A stretch of 63,840 nt of DNA, the filler included, from Folioceros fuciformis (taxonomy: Eukaryota): NCBI GenBank assembly GCA_049999805.1. It is 18 parts of 18 records of this genome, joined end to end, with 100 filler letters (N's around TTAATTAATTAA, not from the genome) between each part and the next. Parts side by side here need not be neighbours in the genome. Positions count along the whole stretch, not along the records: positions 2,727 to 7,431 come from JBNGIO010006757.1; 17 more parts are not named here. One strand, 5' to 3'. This document shows, one piece after another, positions 3,965 to 51,624 of this stretch. A program made the position numbers and the translations under genes. Below the pieces are notes generated by a model. That model saw only the letters and a list, made by a program, of their open reading frames with translations. It ran no database searches and was not told where the DNA came from. How positions within the stretch are numbered: position 1 is the stretch's first letter; every line of letters starts with the position of its first letter.

Positions 3965-4814
3965 ACTTCCCTCGGTTGGGGGAGACTTAACGCACCGAGG
4001 ATAAGGGACTCGGCAGGAGTTTCTGTTGCTCGGCATCTTGAAAGAAGGTTTTGCGGTGGAGAGAAGCCACGGGGAGATCTGACCTGCATTCTGGAAGTTG
4101 TCAGCAAGGTGCTTAGGCCGTATACTTTTACAAGGATCTGTATCTGGCACTGAAACCTAAGTTCACTGACTCGACTGTAGCCAGGATTGCTGGTTCTTCG
4201 CTGCCTCCTCTAAGAATCCTTGTTTGTAGTGGCCTTTCTTTAGTAAAATTATTTCTCTGAATAGTCTCGTGGAAACCACCTTCTTAGATATCCCCAGATT
4301 GACAAGGCTTCTGACAGCAATCCTGATTCGATGAGGAGGCAAAAGGAAAAGTCCTAACTCGGTTTCCTTTGCTCGAAATTGATCGCCTAGATGCTCATCA
4401 CACCCTTGAGACAATTCCAAAACAAAGATCCTTTCAATATTCATCCTTTGCTTGCATTTTCCTCACGTTCCTCCCCACTTGTTTGCACGTTCGCGCGCTT
4501 GCGGTACCCATAGTGAACAGGGTGGATATCACGCGGTTTCTCATTCTGGGTCCCAACCGATTTGCGATGGGTGTGGGCGTCGTTTTACTTGGATGGTGAA
4601 AGGCTCGAATTCATCATCTGGATTTACATGGGCAATCTCTCCCTCCGAAATTTCCAAACCACGACGTGCATTTCGTTCCACTTGTCCGACAAAAATCCGC
4701 GTGCATTTTTCTTCAAGGTAGTGAGGTCTCATGTGGTAGTCTAGACAAGACTTGCTGGCATCGTGCTGCATGTAGGTAGTCTGTTATGGTTCGGAGCAGA
4801 AGTGGAACGGAACG

Positions 4815-6529
4815 ATGGTCACAGTATGGCACCCGGAACCGTTGTGGTCCCAACAAGTTGGTGTGCGTACAGGAATTCTACAAGGAGCTCCCGCTCACCT
4901 CACCTTACCGAGTGGATCTTCATCAAACAACCAAGACTCCAGGTGGAGCAGCAGCAGTATAAGAAGCCCAGCACTTTCGCTTCCGACAAGCCCTATGGGT
5001 GGGGGCGTCGGTCGCTGTCTGGAGCAGGAGCAGGAGCAACTGTGGCAAAAAACAAATTGTGGATCCTACCATGTGGTGGGACAACAGGCGAGATAAGAAG
5101 AGCTCCCATTGGCCGGACTTCCGGCGTAGAGGATCCGGGGAGGTCCTGTGGTTGAACCACATGTTCAAACCAGCTTGGGTTGATGAGCACCTTGTTGCCT
5201 TGGATATGACGGTGGGTCAGGGTGCCTCTCCTTCGTCCAAGTCGAGCTCTTTGGAAATGGAAATCCCCGAACCTGGGAGGCGTACAGAGTCGGAAATGGG
5301 GTGCAGGTCAACCAGTGAGAGCAGCCCAGCTCCTCCACTTCCGAGAAAGAGTGCGGGTTGGGACGAGGTTCCCGACGACGGTAGTCGTGAGGAACAGCAG
5401 CACTTGTGGCAACAATTTTTTCTGGACCCTACCGTTTGGTAGGATAACAGTCGAGACAAGAGGGACTCCCGTTGGCCTGACTTTCGGCATAAGGGGTCCG
5501 GTGAGGTGCTGTGGTTAAACAGCATCTTCAAGCCAGCTTGGGGTTGATGAGCAACTCATTTTCTTGGATATGCAGATGGGTCTTGGTTCCACTCCTTTGG
5601 AGTCCACGTATCCCGCCAGGTTTTTGACAGCATGAACAGAAAGGATGTGGTGACATGGACCACCCTGATTGGTGGGTATGCTCAGCAAGGGCTTGGCCAA
5701 GGGGCGCTTGTCGTGTACGGTCACATGGAAGAGGCGGGCCTCATTTTGGCTGACCATGTTACTTTCGCTTGCCTTCTGCAGGCCTGTGGAGCCAGTGGTG
5801 CCTTACAGAAGGGGAGGGATCTACACTCTCAAATTGTGGAACGAGGACTACTGGATGACATTGTGTTGGGCACCTGCCTGGTGGACATGTATGCAAAATG
5901 TGGTGAAAGGATGATGCATGCCGGGTGTTTGACAGTATGAACAAAAAGGGTGTGGTTACATGGACCGCCCTGATTGTTGGGTATGTGCAGCAAGGACTCG
6001 TCCAAGAGGCGCTTGTTGCTTATGGACGTATGGAGGAGGCGGGCCTCAGTTTGGCTGATCGTGTTACTTTTGCTTGCCCGATGTGGATAGGAGAGAAACT
6101 CAGAGAAGGGCAGCAGGAGCTAACAAGAAACCTGCAGTGGCGACCACCGAGGTGAACGAGCAGGTACATCGATTTGTGATGGGAGAGAGGAGACACGATA
6201 TTGCAGTTAAGGTACAGAGCACGAATGCACGACTGAAGCAAGAGGGAGGCCACGTTCCTCAAACAAATCTGGTGCTGGAGCCATTGTCAGAGAAGGATAA
6301 GGAAGACATGCTGTGTGGGCATGCTGAGAAACTGGCTCTGGCGTTTGGTCTTTTAAACACACCTAGTGGAACCCCTCTGGTGGTAACGAAAAATCTACGC
6401 ATGTGCAATGACTGCCACAGTTCCACAGAGATCATGTCAAGGCTTGAACAGCGAGACATTGTTGTAAGGGATGGATACCGTGTACATCGGTTCACGGCTG
6501 GTTGTTGCAGTTGTAAGAGCCGGCCTTGA
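4815..6529 (+). pseudogene. Disrupted PLS-class PPR gene with two N-terminal PDF(OSB)-like motifs and a C-terminal DYW:KP (GRP-like) deaminase domain
   Basis: PLS repeats (VFDSMNRKDVVTWTTLIGGYAQQG, VTFACLLQACG, LVDMYAKCG) precede KKPAVA...HAEKLALAFGL...KNLRMCNDCH...CSCKSRP*. Lesions: frameshifts near 5050, 5541, 5912 and 6078, TGG>TAG at 5440-5442, and most of the E region missing. Confidence 0.88.
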
Positions 6530-7431: not shown

Positions 7432-8287
7432 NNNNNNNNNNNNNNNNNNNNNNNNNNNNNNNNNNNNNNNNNNNNTTAATTAATTAANNNNNNNNNNNNN
7501 NNNNNNNNNNNNNNNNNNNNNNNNNNNNNNNCCCCTCTTCCGCTTGACGTTGGTGCCCGGGGGCTGCAGGGCCGCCTCCGCCTCAATTTCAGCCCTGGTT
7601 CTCCTGTGCCTCCGGCGGGGCGCGGCCGGATCCATGAGCCCCTTGGCCACCATCGCCAACAAGAGCGCGTTGCCGTCCGTGCCCTCCTGTCCCCTCCGTC
7701 ACCCCCGCTGCATTGGCCGGGCCATGCACTGCAGTGGAGTACGATGCAATGTGCGCGCTGTTGTCAGCTCCCGCTTCCAATTGGCCCCGCTGCCCCCTTC
7801 CGGTACCGTCCCCTGGCCTGGCCTGGCCTAGCCTGGCCTGGCCTGGCCTGGCCTGCTCTTCCACCCTCCTCTCCCGCTCACACAAATTGTGAAGACCAAT
7901 GTGGCAGCGACAAAGACGTGGCTGGGCGCAGCGTGATGGGAGCTCGGGACGGCGCCATCGCTGTCCCCTCGTGTCAGGACGCAGAAGGCGGGAGTGCAGT
8001 CTCCTGCACCTGCTACTTCCGCTCAGTGTCACTCACAACGCAACCTGGCGACACTCACACTCACATTTTCAACACCGGGGCAGGCATCTATCCCCGTCTA
8101 TGCATGATGATGTGTAAGACATGGTTCAGGTTAGGGCAAGGCGGGGGGACGGACGGGGGCCGGCCCCGGCCCCGGGGGACGGTGACGGGCAGCACTCCGT
8201 ACTGCTCTTCCCGCTAGGGTTAAACCGTAACCAACGGTCAAGGCTCCGGCATTCAAAATTGCCTCATTCGGAGACCAGAGTGGCGTG

Positions 8288-9375: not shown

Positions 9376-11278
9376 CTATTGGGAGTTGCGCCTCATCTGA
9401 GAACGGAGTTGCTGCTCGATGGACGAGAAGTTGGCTTGGAGATCGAACATCCGCTCCAGAGCATGCATGTTTTCTATGGTGTCGCTCACACTCTTGCCGT
9501 CGGTGCCGTCCGTCCTGAGGTGCTGCATGGGCCCATGGAGCAGCTTGTTCACGATGCTTCTCGACAGCTCCTCCACCAGTTGCCTGTCCTTCTTGGGCAC
9601 ATCTTCACTCAGTTTGCTCAGGCACTTGTTCACCTCGCTGGATCGGATGCGTTCTGCGTAGGCCCGCAGCCGCTTGATGGTCGGGACAGTTTCCAGAGAG
9701 TCCCGCCACGACTCGAAATTCTGCAGCTCGATGTCGATTAGTACTTGGGCTTCCTGTGCCTTCCGTCTCCTGTCCTCCTTGTTGGCTGCCACCACTTCCT
9801 CCAGGTCGTCCACGTTGAAGAGTCTGGTGGAAGGGACGCCGGAGACGCAGGGGGCCACGTTCCTGGGCACGGCTATGTCAACGAAGTATCTGGTCCCGCC
9901 CACATGGGTGGAGGCGGGAGGGAGCTGCTCCACGTCTTCCTTCACAAATAGAGGGGTGTTAGCTGCAGTGCTGGTGAAGATGACGTCTGCCTCACTCGCA
10001 CAGATCATGAGCCGTGAGAGAGGCTCGTACTGCAGGTTCAACTCTGGGAACTCCGCCTGCAGCTCCAACACTTTCTGCTCCGACCTGTTCACCACCACCA
10101 CGTGGGTGGAGCCCCTGGAGACGAGATGCTTCACCAGCAGCTTCGCCATCTTCCCTGCACCCACCACCAGCACTCGTGCCAGGGCAAACCTCTCCTTGGA
10201 AAGCTTCAGCACAGCCAGCTCCACGGCAGCAGAGCTGACGGACACAGCCCCTGCAGAGATGCTGGTCTCCGCCCTCACCCTCTTCCCTGCCGTGATGGCC
10301 TGCTTGAACAGCCCATTCAAGTGCCTCCCGAACCCCACGCTCCCCTGCCCGGTCTTGAACACCTGCTTCACCTGCGACAGGATCTGCCCTTCACCCAGCA
10401 CCAGCGAGTCCAGCCCCGACGACACTCTGAACAAGTGCTGACAAGCGTCCCGATCCCGAAGAACGAAGAGATGCTCCCTCAACTCGGCACCAGCGACGCC
10501 GCTTCTCTGCACCCAACACAACACGTGCCCGGCTCCCTCAATTGAACCATCGACCAGCCAAAACATGAACTACGGCAGCGAAAGATTGCGATCCCGCACC
10601 TTGGACATCCAATCCAGCACCTCAACCAACCCTCGATTCCAGGACAGAGCCACCACGTAAATCTCCATCCGATTGCATGTACTCAGCACGGCCGCTTCCT
10701 CAATGTGATTATGCCCACAGAGCTCGGTGATAGCACTAGACCACTCCGGTTCCGGAACCGCCAGCTTCTCCCGCAACTCCACGGGAGCCGTATGCACGCT
10801 CAACCCTAGCACCATGATCACGTTCTTGGCTTTGGTATACCCTGCAAAATCCCATCCCACGCAGGCATCATCAGACCACGCCACAGGTCCAACCTACCCC
10901 CAGAGCCCGGCAACCCAGAGCACAGCACAGCACAGCATGGCAATCCAACCACTCACTTTCAGGCCCGGCAAGACGCAGCTGCTCCAGAGCGCTGGCATTC
11001 GCCGGCTTGATCCTGTGGCCCGGGGGCAGCTCAGGTGTGCCGTCACCGGACAAGGCAGCCCTGGCCCCAGCAGCAGGAGCATGACCCGAGATCTCCAACT
11101 TCTCCAGTCTATGAAACCAGCCCCCGGAATCCCCTCCCCTGAAGAAGGCCCAGCTCCGAAGAAACGGGCACTTGGAGGAGCGCAAAAACGGACACCCCTC
11201 CCGATCGGCCCTAGCAATGTCTGCCAGCCCCTCCAGACCGGAGGCCGGGGCAGGGGCGGCGCACGTCCTCAGACCCAT
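9376..11278 (-). CDS. HEMA: Glutamyl-tRNA reductase (GluTR), 3 coding exons: 11278-10957, 10841-10600, 10506-9376
   Basis: Motifs [25 protein letters not shown], catalytic [38 protein letters not shown] and NKLLHGP. The GT-AG junctions keep frame, and an in-frame TAG just upstream fixes the ATG at 11278. Confidence 0.97.
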
Positions 11279-18466: not shown

Positions 18467-20308
18467 ATGCACCAGGCCGTCCATGTCCGTCCACCAGCTC
18501 TGCCCCGGCTGCTTCAGAGCCCCAACTTCCTTTCTCCTCACCTGCATCTCCTGTGCCTTATCCCACATCTGGGCACCCGAGTAAATGTATGACATCAACA
18601 GGTACGCTGCAGGATCCTTTTTGTCTAGCTTCACCGCTTGGTTGAAGGCATGGCAACCTACCTCCACATTTCTCCACTTTCGACAAGCACTCAAGAGGGT
18701 GTGCCAAACTGAAAGATTAGCCTCAACAGGCATCAACCTCACCATTTCTAGTGCCTTGTCAAGTTGGCCTGCACGACCCAGGAGATCTACCATACATGAG
18801 TAGTGCTCTGCAGCGGGTGTGATGCCGGAGTGCCTCATAGCTTCAAAGTACTCTTGCCCCTTGCTCAGTAGACCTGCGTGACTGCATACGGTTAGAACAG
18901 CCAGAAACGTCTGGCTGCCGGGCTGTATGCAATCCTCTCTCATTCTGTGAAAAAGGTCGAAGACCACTTCACTGTCTCCTTGACGGGTGTATCCATTGAT
19001 GAGCGCCGTCCAGGCAACCACATTTCTTCCGGGCAGAGCATCGAACACCTGTTGCGCATCAACCATGCTCCCGGACTTGGCATACATGTTTATCAAACTG
19101 TTCACCACATTCTCATCACCTTGAAGCCCTAGTTCTTTAATCTGCTCATGAAGCTGATTTCCCGCCTGTAAAGCTGCCACACTTGCACATGCTTGCAGGA
19201 GGCACACAAATATCACAGAATCGAGGATAGCGATGCCCTCTTGTTGCATGGCATGGTACAATCGAAGGGCATCCTGCGCCATTCCCTGCTGGGAATACCC
19301 TGCAATCAGAGCAGTCCAGGTAACCACATCTTTTCGAGAAAGCCTGTCAAACACTCTCTGTGCGTCCGGTAGGCTGCCACATTTTGCATACATGTACACC
19401 AAGCAATTACACACAAACAGATCAGGCTCAACCCCACTGGCCAACACATCAGCATGGACCTGCTGCCCACTTTTCAAGTCTTCTGCCTTTCCACAAGCCT
19501 GCAGAGCCGCCACAAAAACATGGCCATCCGGATTCACCCCTGATCTGCGCATCTGATGATACAGTTGTATGGCCACCTCCGATTCTCCTTGTCTAACATG
19601 TGCAGTGATTATGGACGACCACATGAAGGCATCTGGTGTGGGAACCATGGTGAACACATCCATCGCATCCTTCAACATTCCATGAGAGGCATACATCCGT
19701 ACGACGTGGTTGCACATGAACGTGTCTGCCTGATACCCTCGCATCACGCTGAAAGCATGAACCCGGCGACCCAGTACCAAATCCTTACCACGCACACATG
19801 CTTTCAGGACATTGTGAAACAAGGTCTTGGAAATTCGACACTCCCTGTGAACCAGAATTCCCAGGGCCTCCACAGCTTCGGTGAGCTGGCCCTGCTCACA
19901 TAATTTGCCCACCATCGCAGCTGTGATGCCCATTCCGTATTCTGCAGGGCTCCAAGGATCAGCCTCACCGGGCATTCTCCAATTGGATTTAGGAGCACGA
20001 CGATCCGTCTGCGTAGCCTGTGCAGCCAGCTGACATCCCAGACGCCGTGGCTTGCAAATGCTCCTTAACCAGAGCACCTCCCCAGACTGTTCATGCCGAA
20101 ATTCATGACACCGAAAGACCTTGTTCAGTTTTCTGTGATTCCAACAAAGAGCATGTTCCAATAACTGATGTCGCCCCAAAGCCAGCTGATCTGAAACGCT
20201 TCCTCCAAGACCTGTGAGCCCATCAATCTGCCATGTCCATGAAATCTGCTCCCCCAATAGGCCTGGTCCCCGTCTGCCAGAGTCAATTGCAAGGTTACAG
20301 GCAGCCAT
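18467..20308 (-). CDS. PLS-class PPR protein with E1/E2 and start of a DYW:WW-type domain; intronless, 3'-truncated
   Basis: Canonical P-L-S repeats, HYSCMVDLLGRAG and VWHTLLSACR are followed by KQPGQSWWTDMDG (WW variant of the PG box). A degenerate PDF-like motif lies near the N-terminus. Confidence 0.95.
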
Positions 20309-32580: not shown

Positions 32581-34256
32581 CTGTTAATTGTAGAGGATGC
32601 CACCAAGTCATAATACTTATAGTGGTTTAAGTAGTTTTCTTTGTTGGATGTAAGTGCTTGCTTGGTGTCTAGCTAAGTTGTGATAAGTGTTCACTAGCCC
32701 AGTTGTTATTAGTTTTGTATGGCATGTGTAACATGATTGAGTGTCATTGCAAATTACAAACCTACGGGAAGGAGTGCTACATGTGATTGCGCTTAATTCA
32801 TATGAGAGTAGATTAGTGAGAACCTCTGCCATGCTATCCTCCATCCTTCATATAGACTATCCTTCATTGCCAACAACAGCTCGCTACTCTACTGCACAAA
32901 AGAACGTCATCTTACATATAGAACAAGGTAGTAAAAGGAATGCAGATGATTATCAAGGCCCTGAAATTTAGACCAGCCACAAAGGTAGTGATTCAGCTGC
33001 AACAACCATGAACATGGGCAGGATGTCCCCTCCACCACCACTATGATCACACGCAAAGTCTATTCAAGATATAACNNNNNNNNNNNNNNNNNNNNNNNNN
33101 NNNNNNNNNNNNNNNNNNNTTAATTAATTAANNNNNNNNNNNNNNNNNNNNNNNNNNNNNNNNNNNNNNNNNNNNCCCAATGCCCTACTCCCAACAGGTA
33201 ACCCAATGCCCTACTCCCAACATTTAGGGAGGGTGGACTGTAATATGTATGCGGTAAACTCGCAAGTGGATTTACTTGATTGTACATAGTTTAATCCCTA
33301 AACAACGGGGTTGCGGGGAGCCGAGTTTTGCGATGGACTCCAATTCAGTTTTTTGGTAGCTTGCGGGGTGACCATTGTTACACCCTAACGCACCCTCCAC
33401 ACAGATCCCTAGAATGTGGTGGAATCGATGGAGACCGTCATCGACCACTGGAAGCCTTCAGCTGTGAAGGGACTTCCAACTTCGGCCGATGGTCGACCCA
33501 TTGCATAGCTCTGGCACCCTCGCCTGCAATTGACTACCTTCCAGCCCCGAGACCTCCTTGCAATCTTCTGCCTCATTCAGATAGTCATACCTTTCAGCTG
33601 TTCCAACTCACCTCTGGCATTGCTCTCTTTGCAATCTTCTACTTCAGGAACAGTTGCAGGCTTCATCAACCACAGCATTGAGAAGCTCATCTTGGAGTGG
33701 AATCTGCTGCGCCTCTATTCCAGACAGATGAATCAAGCAGACATGGTCGTCCCCCAAACCCCTGACTCCGACCAGTCCAGCAGCTATTCCAGACATAAAC
33801 AAACGAACATTTCATTCGAGTCTTTGATTGAAGATTGTTGCACACGAACACAATCACTTCATTGGTAAACACTAAAACCAGTCCCTTCGGCATGCAAGAA
33901 TGAAGCGATACGCAAGGACAAGCTCCTGCAGCAACAGAATACGGATCGACGGCAGAAGCAAACTCGACACTGTAACCACTTAGAGCTGGAACATCAACAG
34001 ATCCTACTGCAAGAACGCTCCATCAATTCCGCTTGCCGTTGAACGAAGGTGACCACAAGCACTTGATACCACACTCAAGCCTTGGAAGACTGACACCATA
34101 GCGTCAGTTAAAATACACATGATGCGGCATAGCATGATAAGACGCTGCAAGAAAGAATTTGTATCGCCGGCCAACGAAAATTCCCCTTCGCAACGCCTCT
34201 CACATCTGGAGCATAAAGAAGACCTGATGGCAGAACATACGCTCTTGAAGCGAACG

Positions 34257-35111
34257 ATGAAGGCTCCCTGGACGCTGCTGCGGCTGCTGGTCCTCAGTCT
34301 GCACTTGCCTCGTCCTCACACGACACACGCCAGGGCTCCGACACCTGCCCCGGCTCCAGCTCCCTCGAGAAATGCAGGGACCAACTCCTTCAACTTCTCC
34401 ATCTCAGAGTGGGACCAGAGTAGCTACTTGACGCTGAGTGGCGACGCGGCCCTGGCGCCAGACGGGAGCAGGCTCCTGTTGGTACCGGGCTTCAGGCGGT
34501 GGGGCACCGCAAGGGCTACTTTTGCAGAGCGAGTCCTTTTCCTGGACGAGAGCAGCAAAGCAGAGGCGTCCTTCTCCACCACCTTCACCTTCTCCATCCA
34601 GGTGAACGATTCGGGGTACATGGGGGACGGGATCGCCTTCCTCATTGCGTCGGGGCAAGAAGTCCCCGAGGGCTACGAAGGCAAAAACATTGGGCTGCAC
34701 GACGCCGGGGTGAGGGATGGTGATCCCGCCATCCAGGTGCTCGCCGTGGAGTTCGACACGCACCGGAACCTGGACCTACAGGACCCCGACGGGCATCACG
34801 TCGGCCTGGACGTGAACAGCCTCGTATCCCTCATCACCAGGGACGTGGCGGCGCTGGACCTGGCCTTGGCCGACGTCGCCGTGCGCAAGCTTACCGCTTG
34901 GATCGACTACGACGCTCGCAAGCACCAGATCGAGGTGCGCCTCGCCAGGTACCCGGCTCCCAGGCGCGACGCCACCCGCCTCTTCACGTACCCCAGGATT
35001 AACCTCGCAAAGATCGTGAGCGGAGCGTCCTACGTCGGCTTCTCTGCCGCAACAGGCATGGCCACCGAGGAGAACACCATTTACTCCTGGTCGTTTCAGA
35101 GCTGGCTGTAG
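34257..35111 (+). CDS. Secreted legume (L-type) lectin domain protein, single exon, no TM or kinase domain
   Basis: Hydrophobic N-terminus, then LTLSGDA, ASFSTTFTFSI, GDGIAF, LAVEFDT, HHVGLDVNS, AWIDYD, YVGFSAATG and IYSWSF. Confidence 0.92.
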   Translation: MKAPWTLLRLLVLSLHLPRPHTTHARAPTPAPAPAPSRNAGTNSFNFSISEWDQSSYLTLSGDAALAPDGSRLLLVPGFRRWGTARATFAERVLFLDESSKAEASFSTTFTFSIQVNDSGYMGDGIAFLIASGQEVPEGYEGKNIGLHDAGVRDGDPAIQVLAVEFDTHRNLDLQDPDGHHVGLDVNSLVSLITRDVAALDLALADVAVRKLTAWIDYDARKHQIEVRLARYPAPRRDATRLFTYPRINLAKIVSGASYVGFSAATGMATEENTIYSWSFQSWL

Positions 35112-43181: not shown

Positions 43182-44999
43182 NNNNNNNNNNNNNNNNNNN
43201 NNNNNNNNNNNNNNNNNNNNNNNNNTTAATTAATTAANNNNNNNNNNNNNNNNNNNNNNNNNNNNNNNNNNNNNNNNNNNNGTACTACACATCCTCTGAC
43301 CACTCTATTGCAATCTCCTAACCACTCTATCGCAATCTCTTAACCACTCTAGTGCAAGTAACCTCATAGACCACTCTAGTGCAATATCATGAATGTGTTG
43401 GATCGCAAACTAAAATCCCAAAGCGAACATGGCCAAATTCTTCCTCTCACGCTACCATCTAAGATGCATCACTAGGAAAAGTTCGAAGAAGTTGGTACAA
43501 CGTTTACACTCAATAGTGGTGTTGTGGAGACATTGCAGAAAAGGTTGCAAGTAGGTCTCGATACCCTGCAAGCATGTAGGTGGGCATGGATTCCTTGAAG
43601 GAGACCATGTGGTAGCTCAAACCAGTAGATTGCTGAAGGGCTAGGCTGGGTTGCAGAGATCAGAAACGCTAGAGGGGGAGGGAAATAGCTATTCTGTTTA
43701 GATTGATTTTTACGTACAGTCATGATGAAATTTTGTTTTGGGCGGATGCTTTCGCCAAATCAATAGTGATTTTGTTGCACACGGATGCTGTTAGAGACTC
43801 GGTAGCACTGTTTTAGAGTGAAACTATTGCAAGGCTTCAGAGTGACGCTATTGTAGATTCTGCCTGAACGTATTCGGGGTTAGGAACGCTAGGAATTATG
43901 TACTCTACAAGTTATGAATGTGGTTGCATTGGGACTTCTTGCTATCTGCGCGGTTGCACAGCATGGAAATGAGGCATATGATTGCAATAAATCTCCTTAT
44001 GCTACCTGTGTACCCAGCACTCGCTCACCCGAATTGCTCACCAACCATTAGCTCTCATGATATAGGCCACCACTAGAGGCACCCTAGGATCAAGCTTCCC
44101 CAAGGAATTCATGACGTCTATTGGGGACTCTACATTATCTTTGCTATCAAAAAAAATTACCTGCTTCAACCTCTTGACCACACTCATTTGTAAGAAACAG
44201 CTTGGAACAAGAGAGGGAGATGGTCCATGGATAGCAGGTCCGGTTTCAGCCCTGGACAAGACCCGGTGCGGATAAGACACCAAAAGACCATGAGCAACTG
44301 ATACTCGGAGATGTACAATTAAAACAAGGTGATTTCCTCTGTCAGCCGTGGTAAGCCATACTCATCCCCGGAGGCTTCGTCGGTCACCACAGAGGCGAGG
44401 AGATGGCTTCTGTAAGTTGTATCCGAGAATTTCAGATCCTACATGCTGACACCCTGGCGTAGTAAATTTCTATGTGTGCAACCACATGCCTACTGTAGAA
44501 GTGTGAAGAAACGGACAGTTGGTCAAAACAGACGTTCCAAGGGGCGCAGGTGACTGCGTCTGCTCACGGGGGTTTACGCACAACCACGGGGAATGACTAT
44601 CCGGGGAAGTTCAGACCCGAGTTTTTTCGTGAAGCGGATGTACCCAGCAAGGGACTAGGTCAGTTCTATGTGCTGTCATGGGATTCTCACAGTTCATCTC
44701 TCAGTAGGTACCAGGGTACCTTCAATCGGGATTCCAGGCATCAGGTTTGGCTTGGATCAGCCTCGCAAGGAATCTGCATGTGTTGAACCTCAGGATGGTC
44801 CATGGCAGACAGTCCGGCCGCAAGAGCAAACAGCAATCCATGCCACATCAGAGAGCTCACGCAACTGTCGCCAATAGCTATGTATGTACACATACCTACA
44901 GCTGAACTTGCACGCTGTTACGGCAGACAAGGAGAGCCAGAGGACAGAGCACAGCGTCCCAATCACCTTCCTGGAAGCACAGACAAACACAGAGACACA

Positions 45000-45117
45000 G
45001 GCACGCTCCCTCCGCAGGTATTAACCTGTTCAGGTGCGAAGGGACTCTCTCAGCCTGTCCAAGTGCACAGCACTGGCTCACAGCCAGGCTGCAATTGGAA
45101 CAAGCACCCCCGGTGCC
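45000..45117 (-). ncRNA. TPP (thiamine pyrophosphate) riboswitch aptamer in the THIC 3'UTR
   Basis: Minus strand reads GGCAC-CGGGGGTGCTTG...CAGGCTGAGAGAGTCCCTTCGCACCTGAACAGGTTAATACCTGCGGAGGGAGC-GTGCC. It has P1 GGCAC/GTGCC, the CTGAGA motif and the P5 CAGG-TTAATA-CCTG hairpin, about 420 nt after the stop codon. Confidence 0.97.
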
Positions 45118-45537
45118 TTGTGTGATTAGCCAACTTGACCGACACGAAACAAAAGTCCATAGACACGTTCTAAAATCAAAGCTTCCAAAGATTATTACTC
45201 CTCATAGCAAATATACAGCCCTGCAATCTGACATGGATACTATCACCGGATGCAGATACGTATAACCTCATGCCAGACGCAGGGTAAAATATGAAGAGCT
45301 AGAGAAAGCTGACTATGTGCGCACACCAAAACCCGCAAGCACGGGTGAGCTGCCACAGCTCGCATGAAGGGACGTCCACTGACGTAACCTCTCTTTTGCC
45401 AACTTGCAGCTGGGGAGTTGCTGTCACCATGAGTTTCGACGTCAGTCACAACTGCACTTTGGGCAATACCAACCCCTGACAAGCCCCAGAACAAGCATAA
45501 GCCAAGAAAGTGATGGACCAACGATCCAAACCTTTCC

Positions 45538-48025
<2,488 letters not shown>

Positions 48026-48191
48026 TGCCAGGCCGCGACGAGACTGCTGAGACGAGCCGGGGCGCGACGGGAGAGTTCCACTTCACTTCACGTCACCGCA
48101 TCTCTGTGGAAAAGTGCGAGACGGGCACGGGTTTACATCTGAGGTTAAGGTGAGGCCAACTGGCTACGGTGCGCATCCAAGTACACAGTAC

Positions 48192-50173
<1,982 letters not shown>

Positions 50174-51624
50174 TCTCACGCCTTGTGCCTTTTTTCGCGC
50201 ACAGACCTAAGGAAACTTCGATTCCTCTGGCCTCTTTCCTCTTGTTCTTCAAGCACATGCTGTATGCATTGTCATTGTACAATTGTAAATGTGGAGACTA
50301 TCGGGTTTTGGCCACTTGTCGTTGTAGCGCGGTTTGTGAAAAGTGCATCGCCCAAACGGTTACACCTCTTCCGATATTTATAGTAAACCACAATATAAAA
50401 TGCGCAGGCCTTCCTTTTCCCCACAATTAAAGCACAGCGAAACAGCAACTGCCAAATTGTCCTCATTGCTTGTCTGCTCTTGTTCCGTGGCAGAGTAAAA
50501 TCTCGGTCTCCTCTTCGTGCACCTGTCAGTGCGACCTTCAACAGCATGCCCCTTTGCGGAAACAATAATATCAACAAATCTTCCACGCAGAACATGATCA
50601 AACACTTCCTCCATGTACAAACATGAAAAGTGGACAGGAAAAAAATCCTCATCCAAGCCAACTGCAATGATCGGAACCCCATTACACCGCACGCATCCCT
50701 GCGAACCGTGTCCACAGGTTAATCTTTGTGGAAGCAACGGACGTTCCTAGCTTGGTTGTCTGGCGTAGGTTCATAGCCTACATAGTCTCTGGGATGTTTT
50801 TGCTGTGAGCAAATGAACACTTCCGCCTTACTGCGGGTTTCCAAGGCCCCTGTACACAGAGATCACACCAAGCAACAGATGTGTTATGTCTGGATCAAGC
50901 AAAAAGATCACCACTTCCAAATCTAATTTTTGTCTGAAAAAAATCTGGGTAACCTCATTTGCTTCCTCCTGCAGTTAAGGCCAAAGCGCAGGAAGTGTAG
51001 AGCAATTACNNNNNNNNNNNNNNNNNNNNNNNNNNNNNNNNNNNNNNNNNNNNTTAATTAATTAANNNNNNNNNNNNNNNNNNNNNNNNNNNNNNNNNNN
51101 NNNNNNNNNGGCCTGGCCCAATGTAGTTCAAGGATGCAGCACTAAACGCTCGTTGTCCTTTTGTGTGAATTTACAATTTTTAAAGGGGGTTCAACCATCA
51201 ACATGCGAACCCTAAACCCTCAGTTTCCATCCAGTCCTTCCTGCAAATAACTGCTACGCTCCTACGTATAGCCTCCCGCTAAGCCATTTGGACGACTGGC
51301 ATGAATCCAGAAATTTGGCTGGCGTCATAGAAACTCCACGTACAGAGTGGCTCCCAAGGTTGTTTTACAGTGAGACGTAGGACTCTAAAGCTCTGCGTCC
51401 TAGTTCTTCCATACCTGAGGACCGCCATGCGTTTGACCCAACCCACGAATACAGTATACGGGTTCGTCAGAGATGACACATAGTGAGCATGGGAGAAAAG
51501 ACCAATTACGGTCAGGGTGGTGGGTGCTACATAAGTATACCGAAGCAGAGGACTCTTGGGTGAGCTCGAGTCCCAAGTGTGTAACGAGATGTTTCGAACA
51601 TGGAAAGCCACTGGTCGTTCCTCT

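Follow-up and report, generated by a model that had tools for sequence, protein, structure and literature searches.

A decayed PPR-DYW:KP gene with OSB-type PDF motifs in Folioceros fuciformis points to an apparently undescribed PDF-PPR subclass of organelle RNA-editing factors

Introduction

In plant organelle RNA editing, pentatricopeptide repeat (PPR)-DYW proteins supply both the specificity and the catalysis, and they form the basis of guide-free designer RNA editors. To our knowledge, the designer PPR-DYW editors include the only known U-to-C editors. Here we analyzed a 63,840-base stretch of genomic DNA from Folioceros fuciformis (hereafter the window), in which an original prediction, made from the sequence alone, had described a gene joining two PDF motifs of the organellar single-stranded DNA-binding (OSB) type to a PPR-DYW:KP editing factor. 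This gene copy lies at 4776-6529 on the plus strand. We conclude that it is very probably the decayed copy of a gene from a real subclass of PLS-type PPR editing factors of organelle RNA, one that has apparently not been described.

Among described systems, the PDF motif is known from OSB proteins. It spans about 50 amino acids (aa) and is defined by a conserved Pro-Asp-Phe core with WWDNR and LWL/WV flanks, according to the accessible text of PMC6963530. The same text states that the PDF motif of AtOSB1 alone suffices for binding of single-stranded DNA (ssDNA) and that AtOSB2 is a tetramer (PMC6963530). OSB1 and OSB2 favour ssDNA over double-stranded DNA or RNA, as given in the accessible part of a review (PMC4166229). 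OSB proteins bear the motif in one to three copies, like the family to which the window gene belongs, and place it C-terminal to an SSB-like OB fold, as indicated by the available parts of both sources (PMC6963530, PMC4166229) and by the SSB matches reported below. In contrast to OSB proteins, the PDF-PPR family has no OB fold and carries its units N-terminal to a PLS-type PPR array and a DYW deaminase.

PPR-DYW:KP editing factors, which comprise candidate and designer U-to-C editors, are the second system for comparison. Their described order is (P1L1S1)n-P2L2S2-E1E2-DYW, and the accessible text of PMC9478123 mentions no N-terminal accessory domain. That text gives HAE, an altered PG box and a last triplet other than DYW as the marks of DYW:KP, and DRH and GRP as two hornwort variants (PMC9478123). 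The window copy shares with these factors the PLS repeats, the HAE and CxxC residues of the deaminase, the altered PG box and a non-DYW C-terminus, which is GRP or DRH in its best matches and SRP in the copy itself. The PDF-PPR family differs from the described order by its added PDF unit or units, and the window copy, moreover, is without P2L2S2-E1E2 and frameshifted. PPR proteins with other accessory domains have been described, including RRM-PPR, MORF-PPR and RanBP2-type fusions and NUWA-type bZIP/coiled-coil additions (PMC13386178, PMC11897456). They follow the same principle, a PPR array fused to a second module that binds nucleic acid or protein.

Results

Two OSB-type PDF units lie upstream of a PPR-DYW:KP remnant

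The original prediction had placed two units of about 50 aa on the plus strand, directly 5' of the PLS repeats, and both were reproduced from the DNA and its translation (Table 1). Unit 1 started with LWQ (5040-5048) in the frame of ORF 4776-5096 and continued as KKQIVDPTMWWDNRRDKKSSHWPDFRRRGSGEVLWLNHMFKPAWVDEHL (5047-5193) in the frame of ORF 4963-5442. An A-run at 5047-5052, one base too long or too short, splits LWQ from this remainder, which was intact from 5047 on. Unit 2 read LWQQFFLDPTVW at 5404-5439, followed by an in-frame TAG at 5440-5442 and then by DNSRDKRDSRWPDFRHKGSGEVLWLNSIFKPAW up to 5541. The TAG occupies the place of the second W (tryptophan codon) of unit 1, and the extra G of GGGG at 5540-5543, compared with GGG in unit 1, moves the tail VDEQL to another frame. 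The two units shared 71% identity over 41 aa, and tblastn with unit 1 recovered unit 2 at E 1.3e-17. They are repeated, not strictly head-to-tail, with a linker between them that matched no Pfam family. Upstream, within the leader, an ATG at 4815-4817 might be the start codon.

We searched 1.84 billion representative proteins with unit 1 using phmmer and obtained 248 matches at E <= 1e-3 (150 of them listed), 47 at E <= 1e-10 and 4 at E <= 1e-30. Ten of the listed matches were checked; among these, the clusters of P0004, P0007 and P0035 were named by their sources as OSB3 (Lupinus, Chenopodium) and OSB1 (Populus), and the SSB family PF00436 was found at the Pfam cut-off in P0007 and P0013 and more weakly in P0003, P0014, P0022 and P0035. 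A PDF profile was then available from 401 units of 163 fetched proteins without PPR repeats, mostly OSB-like, which had been gathered as matches to the window's own unit. Its consensus, VANPSEWWDNRKDKKNPKAPDFKHKDTGEALWLNSRSTPEWVKEKL, yields a signature of about 50 aa, WWDNR..K...PDFKHK..GEALWL...P.WV. In a search over all six-frame ORFs of the window, this non-PPR profile recognized both units (E-values in Table 1), while the reversed N-termini of 192 PPR proteins gave no match to the PDF profile at E <= 1. At residues W10, D12, R14, K17, P23, D24, F25, L34 and W44, the alignment dominated by non-PPR proteins (A2) was invariant or almost invariant, and the PPR-linked alignment (A1) was invariant. 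With OSB-named proteins among its matches and a profile of non-PPR origin detecting both units, the predicted likeness to the OSB motif held, and we regard the two window units as homologous to the PDF motif of OSB proteins.

The surrounding gene is nevertheless not an OSB gene, and it shares the module alone. Neither SSB (PF00436) nor any other Pfam family was detected in 5029-5544, and SSB was absent from the scanned PDF-PPR proteins, in which PPR, TPR, E-motif and DYW were the only Pfam families. The PDF units themselves were matched by no model in the Pfam scan, so surveys based on domain catalogues miss a PDF-PPR fusion.

Several other proteins with PDF units were seen. P0128 (179 aa) had a single unit, preceded by an N-terminal part unlike both OSB and PPR proteins. 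P0005 (521 aa), from a metagenome-assembled genome labelled as the green alga Sanguina aurantia, had five matched stretches and no SSB match. Units were also present in P0044 (1526 aa, Coptis), which has a kinesin motor, and in P0022 (1063 aa, Striga), named 'Interactor of constitutive active ROPs 2'; both are probably merged gene models, each consisting of an OSB gene and its neighbour.

The window copy has the marks of DYW:KP and is a pseudogene

Downstream of the units, PF01535 and PF13041 matched within 5551-6155. The PPR remnant was read in one frame over 5602-5907 and in another over 5910-6116, with a one-base shift near 5905-5910. The DYW domain that follows contains HAEKLA and CNDCH, and with them the HxE...CxxC deaminase signature; KKPAVATTEV replaces the PG box, and the domain ends in ...CSCKSRP. 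When this domain was used as a query, 62 database proteins were matched. Thirty-eight of them had HAE, and the closest ended in GGRP or GDRH. The 20 HSE proteins all scored lower, and 19 of these 20 ended in [DF][YF]W. The close matches included P0300 and P0305, two ORFs from transcriptomes of the hornwort Nothoceros. Together with the hornwort-type ends of the best matches, these make a hornwort the probable source of the window. The HAE, the KKPAVA in place of the PG box, the SRP end and the GGRP/GDRH ends of the best matches agree with the earlier assignment of this domain to DYW:KP.

We next aligned the locus with P0212, a protein of 950 aa and the closest intact relative. By tblastn, residues 72-118 of P0212 (PDF) corresponded to 5065-5205 with 57% identity, and residues 802-950 (DYW) to 6080-6526 with 68% identity, without gaps and in the third frame. 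Several PLS triplets of P0212 piled up on the same stretch, 5602-5907 and then 5910-6116, in the two different frames. For P0212 residues ~735-801, the P2-L2-S2-E1-E2 block that is present in the intact relatives, tblastn found no counterpart in the window. Judged by this alignment, the window copy has lost its P2-L2-S2-E1-E2 block along with the greater part of its PPR array, and a frame change accompanies the deletion at about 6077-6080.

The copy therefore has no uninterrupted reading frame: it is broken by shifts at 5047-5052, 5540-5543 and ~5905-5910, by the TAG at 5440-5442 and by the change at ~6077-6080. Introns were considered as the cause of the frame changes and ruled out, as the single-base shifts lie inside conserved motifs. 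Contigs from two studies (runs X1 and X2) matched the locus exactly over 4733-5094, 5078-5428 and 5496-5660 (X1) or 5496-5669 (X2), which means that both homopolymer frameshifts and the junction of unit 2 with the PPR part cannot be put down to one faulty assembly. The TAG at 5440 falls outside the listed exact pieces (5429-5495 uncovered), and no variant was listed there. The frameshifts, the TAG and the missing PPR array mark the locus as a pseudogene. The original prediction had called this copy broken; the stretch 4776-6529 is a dead pseudogene without function.

Intact PDF-PPR proteins exist elsewhere

The original prediction had inferred a parent gene with a PDF-PPR-DYW architecture, to be given up if no intact ORF combined these parts. 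Such ORFs were found. The test with the least bias took nothing but the window's DYW domain as its query. Its top match, P0212 (69% identity, HAE, GGRP end), carries a PDF unit at residues 70-114. Across this search a PDF unit was present in 3 of the 62 proteins, all 3 belonging to the 38 with HAE and to the 27 HAE proteins of at least 600 aa, and in none of the 20 HSE proteins. P0307, ending in GGRP, and P0315, ending in SDRH, are the other two, so that P0212, P0307 and P0315 are intact DYW:KP proteins with PDF units and PLS repeats, and the inferred architecture is real.

Searches starting from other parts of the window recovered further cases. PDF and PPR occurred together in 10 of the 150 listed phmmer matches to unit 1, from Adiantum, Ceratopteris, Selaginella, Sphagnum compactum and Pteridium transcriptome ORFs; the Pteridium ORFs hold PDF and PPR in one transcript-derived frame. 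A word-based search with unit 1 recovered P0002 (1,371 aa), in which three PDF units stand N-terminal to a long PLS array; its E-motif match was weak and below the Pfam cut-off. When the window's second PPR gene (see below) served as the query, an N-terminal PDF unit at E <= 1e-3 was present in 12 of the 120 listed PLS proteins, including Diphasiastrum (two units) and Sphagnum, and in none of the 11 seed-plant-named and none of the 16 'Gb_' proteins among the 120. Intact proteins with PDF and PLS also include DYW:PG members, namely P0133 (Sphagnum), P0241 and P0252, and E-type proteins or proteins without DYW from Selaginella, Diphasiastrum, Adiantum, Ceratopteris and Pteridium. In P0133 the PDF unit (99-143) is followed by PPR, E, E+ and DYW domains, the last of which ends in RDYW.

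Taken over all fetched PPR proteins, 27 of 191 had PDF units, which were always N-terminal and ended 7-80 aa before the first PPR. Full units on PPR proteins scored E 1e-17 to 1e-23, and weak remnants were seen in P0309, P0181 and P0287. Several 'partial' units were artefacts of shortened gene calls, and full-length Sphagnum models (780, 906 and 980 aa) bear complete units. The intact proteins show the order disordered presequence, one to three PDF units, short flexible linker, PLS array, E1/E2 and ending, and the ending is of three kinds: DYW:KP (U-to-C type, GRP or DRH variants), DYW:PG, or no DYW. In Selaginella, PPR proteins P0086/P0152 bear a full PDF unit (E 2e-21). The review cited above, in its accessible part, reports OSB as undetected in Selaginella and lost in 'Pteridophyta' (PMC4166229), and in the Selaginella lineage the PDF motif may survive on PPR proteins only.

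These proteins bear directly on whether the window locus is a chance juxtaposition or an assembly chimera, with an OSB fragment beside a PPR pseudogene and no PDF-PPR parent. The pseudogene does lie on a 4.7-kb contig (2727-7431) of a fragmented assembly, and 5429-5495 is uncovered by the listed exact contigs. However, the contigs of two studies span the junction of unit 2 with the PPR part (5496-5660, 5496-5669), no SSB/OB domain lies upstream, the best DYW match P0212 has PDF-PLS-DYW:KP in one intact 950-aa protein, and a second window locus has a PDF-like unit and PPR repeats in one open frame. We consider a chance juxtaposition or a chimera extremely improbable.

A second PPR gene carries a decayed PDF-like unit

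Statements at the genome level here refer to the window's 18 contigs and to public read sets. There were only two PPR loci in these contigs, both with PDF or PDF-like sequence. The second (Table 1) runs off its contig end at the start of the post-E2 region and has the order N-terminal leader, decayed PDF unit, PLS array, E1/E2. It was collinear with P0260 (52% identity over 588 aa), the position of the PDF unit included. Its decayed unit aligned to that of P0260, which is canonical; GEVLWL is retained, whereas neither WWDNR nor the PDF signature is left.

The public read sets consisted of contigs in all runs (X1 and X2 from two studies, plus X3), and depth is accordingly a sum over contigs. 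In X1, summed depth was ~10 in the flanks and 730-950 across the PDF units; X2 and X3 showed a similar rise. This hints at many near-identical PDF-coding copies. Over the conserved PPR and DYW segments 5596-5659, 5852-5915 and 6300-6427, depth reached ~2,900 to 49,000 in the three runs (flanks ~10), and many contig joints go back one PLS triplet (5907 to 5614). Depth and joints together mark the PPR family of this organism as very large and recently expanded.

PPR-linked PDF units group together in a short tree

We placed the PPR-linked units in a tree with 90 of the 338 non-PPR units, drawn at random (52 columns; 2 of 100 inner branches starred). The PPR label needed 6 changes, compared with a mean of 19.5 after shuffling, and 0 of 500 shuffles were as low. 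All PPR-linked units fell into one starred set, alongside 32 non-PPR units. The tree is too short to show a single origin of the PPR-linked units.

The PDF module is predicted to fold independently

AlphaFold2 modelling of unit 1 alone gave a mean pLDDT of 84, with two short strands and a C-terminal helix. The model of P0212 had a mean pLDDT of 87.5: residues 1-53 were disordered and presequence-like, 54-126 formed a confident module (helix 54-70, strands 75-77 and 90-92, helix 109-126), 126-140 were a disordered linker, and the PPR superhelix started at 144 and was followed by the DYW domain. The model shows a PDF module that is predicted to fold on its own and that hangs by the disordered linker from the array's N-terminal end. 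Against the PDB, the PDF model had no Foldseek match at E <= 10, and hmmsearch gave none at E <= 1.

Other features of the window

The window consists of 18 contigs of 1-8 kb each. Every spacer between them is made up of 44 N, TTAATTAATTAA and a further 44 N. Spacers lie at 2627-2726, 7432-7531 and 15 further places, and adjacency across a spacer carries no meaning. The genes for ThiC and Thi4/THI1 are adjacent and divergent, have long open frames and share contig 43282-51009; they may be a thiamine gene pair.

Table 1 Features of the pseudogene, the second PPR gene and other genes in the window
Feature	Position	Strand	Remarks
Leader	4776-5046	+	open frame (ORF 4776-5096) ending ...EQEQEQLWQ
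PDF unit 1	5040-5193	+	non-PPR PDF profile E 2.3e-19, profile positions 3-46 of 46
Linker between PDF units	5194-5403	+	~70 codons, rich in Ser, Pro, Glu
PDF unit 2	5404-5556	+	non-PPR PDF profile E 4.3e-13 for 5443-5541
PLS-type PPR array remnant	5602-6116	+	~1.5 P-L-S triplets, starts mid-motif; PF01535 E 1.7e-12, 8.8e-10
DYW:KP-type deaminase domain	6080-6529	+	third frame, stop 6527-6529; PF14432 E 3.5e-34
Second PPR gene	18467-20308	-	open 614-codon frame from ATG, another contig
Decayed PDF-like unit of second gene	20048-20173	-	…CWNHRKLNKVFRCHEFRHEQSGEVLWLRSICKP; tblastn E 2e-6, non-PPR profile E 1.1e-3
Glutamyl-tRNA reductase	9376-10566	-	396-codon open frame; GlutR_N, Shikimate_DH, GlutR_dimer domains
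Legume-lectin domain	34053-35108	+	PF00139, E 2e-52, in open frame
ThiC	45538-47160	-	PF01964, E 1e-183
Thi4/THI1	48737-50170	+	PF01946, E 2e-109

Discussion

The intact relatives of the window copy raise the question of what a PDF module might do on an editing factor. In the established parallel mode of PPR-RNA binding, the N-terminal repeats face the 5' nucleotides of the RNA. We tentatively propose that the PDF module is a 5' single-stranded RNA clamp that aids binding, our leading reading, which we hold to be possible rather than probable. The module would fold independently and act as an accessory with affinity for single-stranded nucleic acid but no sequence specificity. A flexible tether would hold it at the N-terminal end of the PPR superhelix, where it could grip the RNA just upstream (5') of the PPR footprint, and this grip would raise affinity and keep the site single-stranded for the DYW deaminase. 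Loss or decay of the PDF unit in many paralogues suggests that the module is helpful and not essential.

Alternatively, the module may bind ssDNA of the nucleoid (transcription bubbles, R-loops or replication intermediates) or proteins, and so recruit or concentrate the factor there for co-transcriptional editing, rather than contact the target RNA itself. This is the main rival to an RNA clamp, and it seems to us rather unlikely. The PDF motif suffices for ssDNA binding, as stated in the accessible text of PMC6963530, and OSB1 and OSB2 favour ssDNA over double-stranded DNA and RNA according to the available part of PMC4166229. The tetramer reported for AtOSB2 (PMC6963530, accessible text) makes a role in self-association conceivable. 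Residues 126-140, the disordered linker of the P0212 model, would let the module act away from the PPR-bound RNA. However, the present data speak no more for DNA binding than for RNA binding. Many close paralogues have lost the module or keep it in decayed form, whereas a general recruitment device would be expected to be more uniform.

Several points weigh against a class of editing factors with an RNA-gripping PDF module. The OSB preference for ssDNA over RNA, as given in the accessible part of PMC4166229, fits binding to nucleoid ssDNA at least as well. The P0212 model carries no information on contacts of the PDF module with the PPR array or with RNA. The units that make up the non-PPR profile were themselves found through the window's unit, and the depth signal over the PDF units does not amount to a copy number. 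On a tree of PPR C-terminal regions from 177 proteins, PDF presence needs 14 changes compared with a shuffled mean of 19.2, a weak clustering, and at least 7 of the 14 are forced by starred branches; the module must thus have been lost, or more rarely gained, many times. In the window's open second gene the unit is decayed, and the module is dispensable in many lineages.

The same patchy presence on the PPR tree, the decayed unit in the otherwise open gene at 18467-20308 and the weak remnants in P0309, P0181 and P0287 could be explained if PDF units in PPR genes were neutral relics of old exon shuffling that serve as spacer or presequence only. Against this stand the near-invariant residues kept in PPR-linked units of mosses, lycophytes, ferns and hornwort-like sequences, the full units at E 1e-17 to 1e-23 and the confident fold of the module in the P0212 model. 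Such conservation across lineages is unexpected of neutral sequence, and we find a mere relic quite improbable.

The PDF-PPR-DYW combination had been put forward as one not known from described factors, and our literature search agrees: it found no described PDF-PPR fusion, within a scope that left some key earlier papers and supplements outside, where a mention is possible. The texts of a 2026 survey of domain fusions in editing factors (PMC13386178) and of a 2024 PPR review (PMC11897456) contain none of the terms OSB, PDF, ssDNA and single-stranded DNA.

At its boldest, our reading would make PDF-PPR proteins a class of organelle editing factors that arose long ago in seedless land plants and has been overlooked. 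Their OSB-type module would couple editing, including U-to-C editing by DYW:KP, to nucleoid single strands, or would replace helpers like the MORFs of seed plants. This we regard as unlikely. If it were true, adding a PDF module could boost designer C-to-U and U-to-C editors, and at the far end of this idea the deaminase could reach ssDNA.

OSB proteins are not the only carriers of the PDF motif: native editing-type PPR proteins of mosses, lycophytes and ferns have it as well, and so do DYW:KP proteins whose nearest named sequences are from hornworts. An accessory module that had gone unrecognized on such proteins would be a new part of the editing machinery, and it raises the question of how editing factors in heavily editing plants gain affinity or get recruited.

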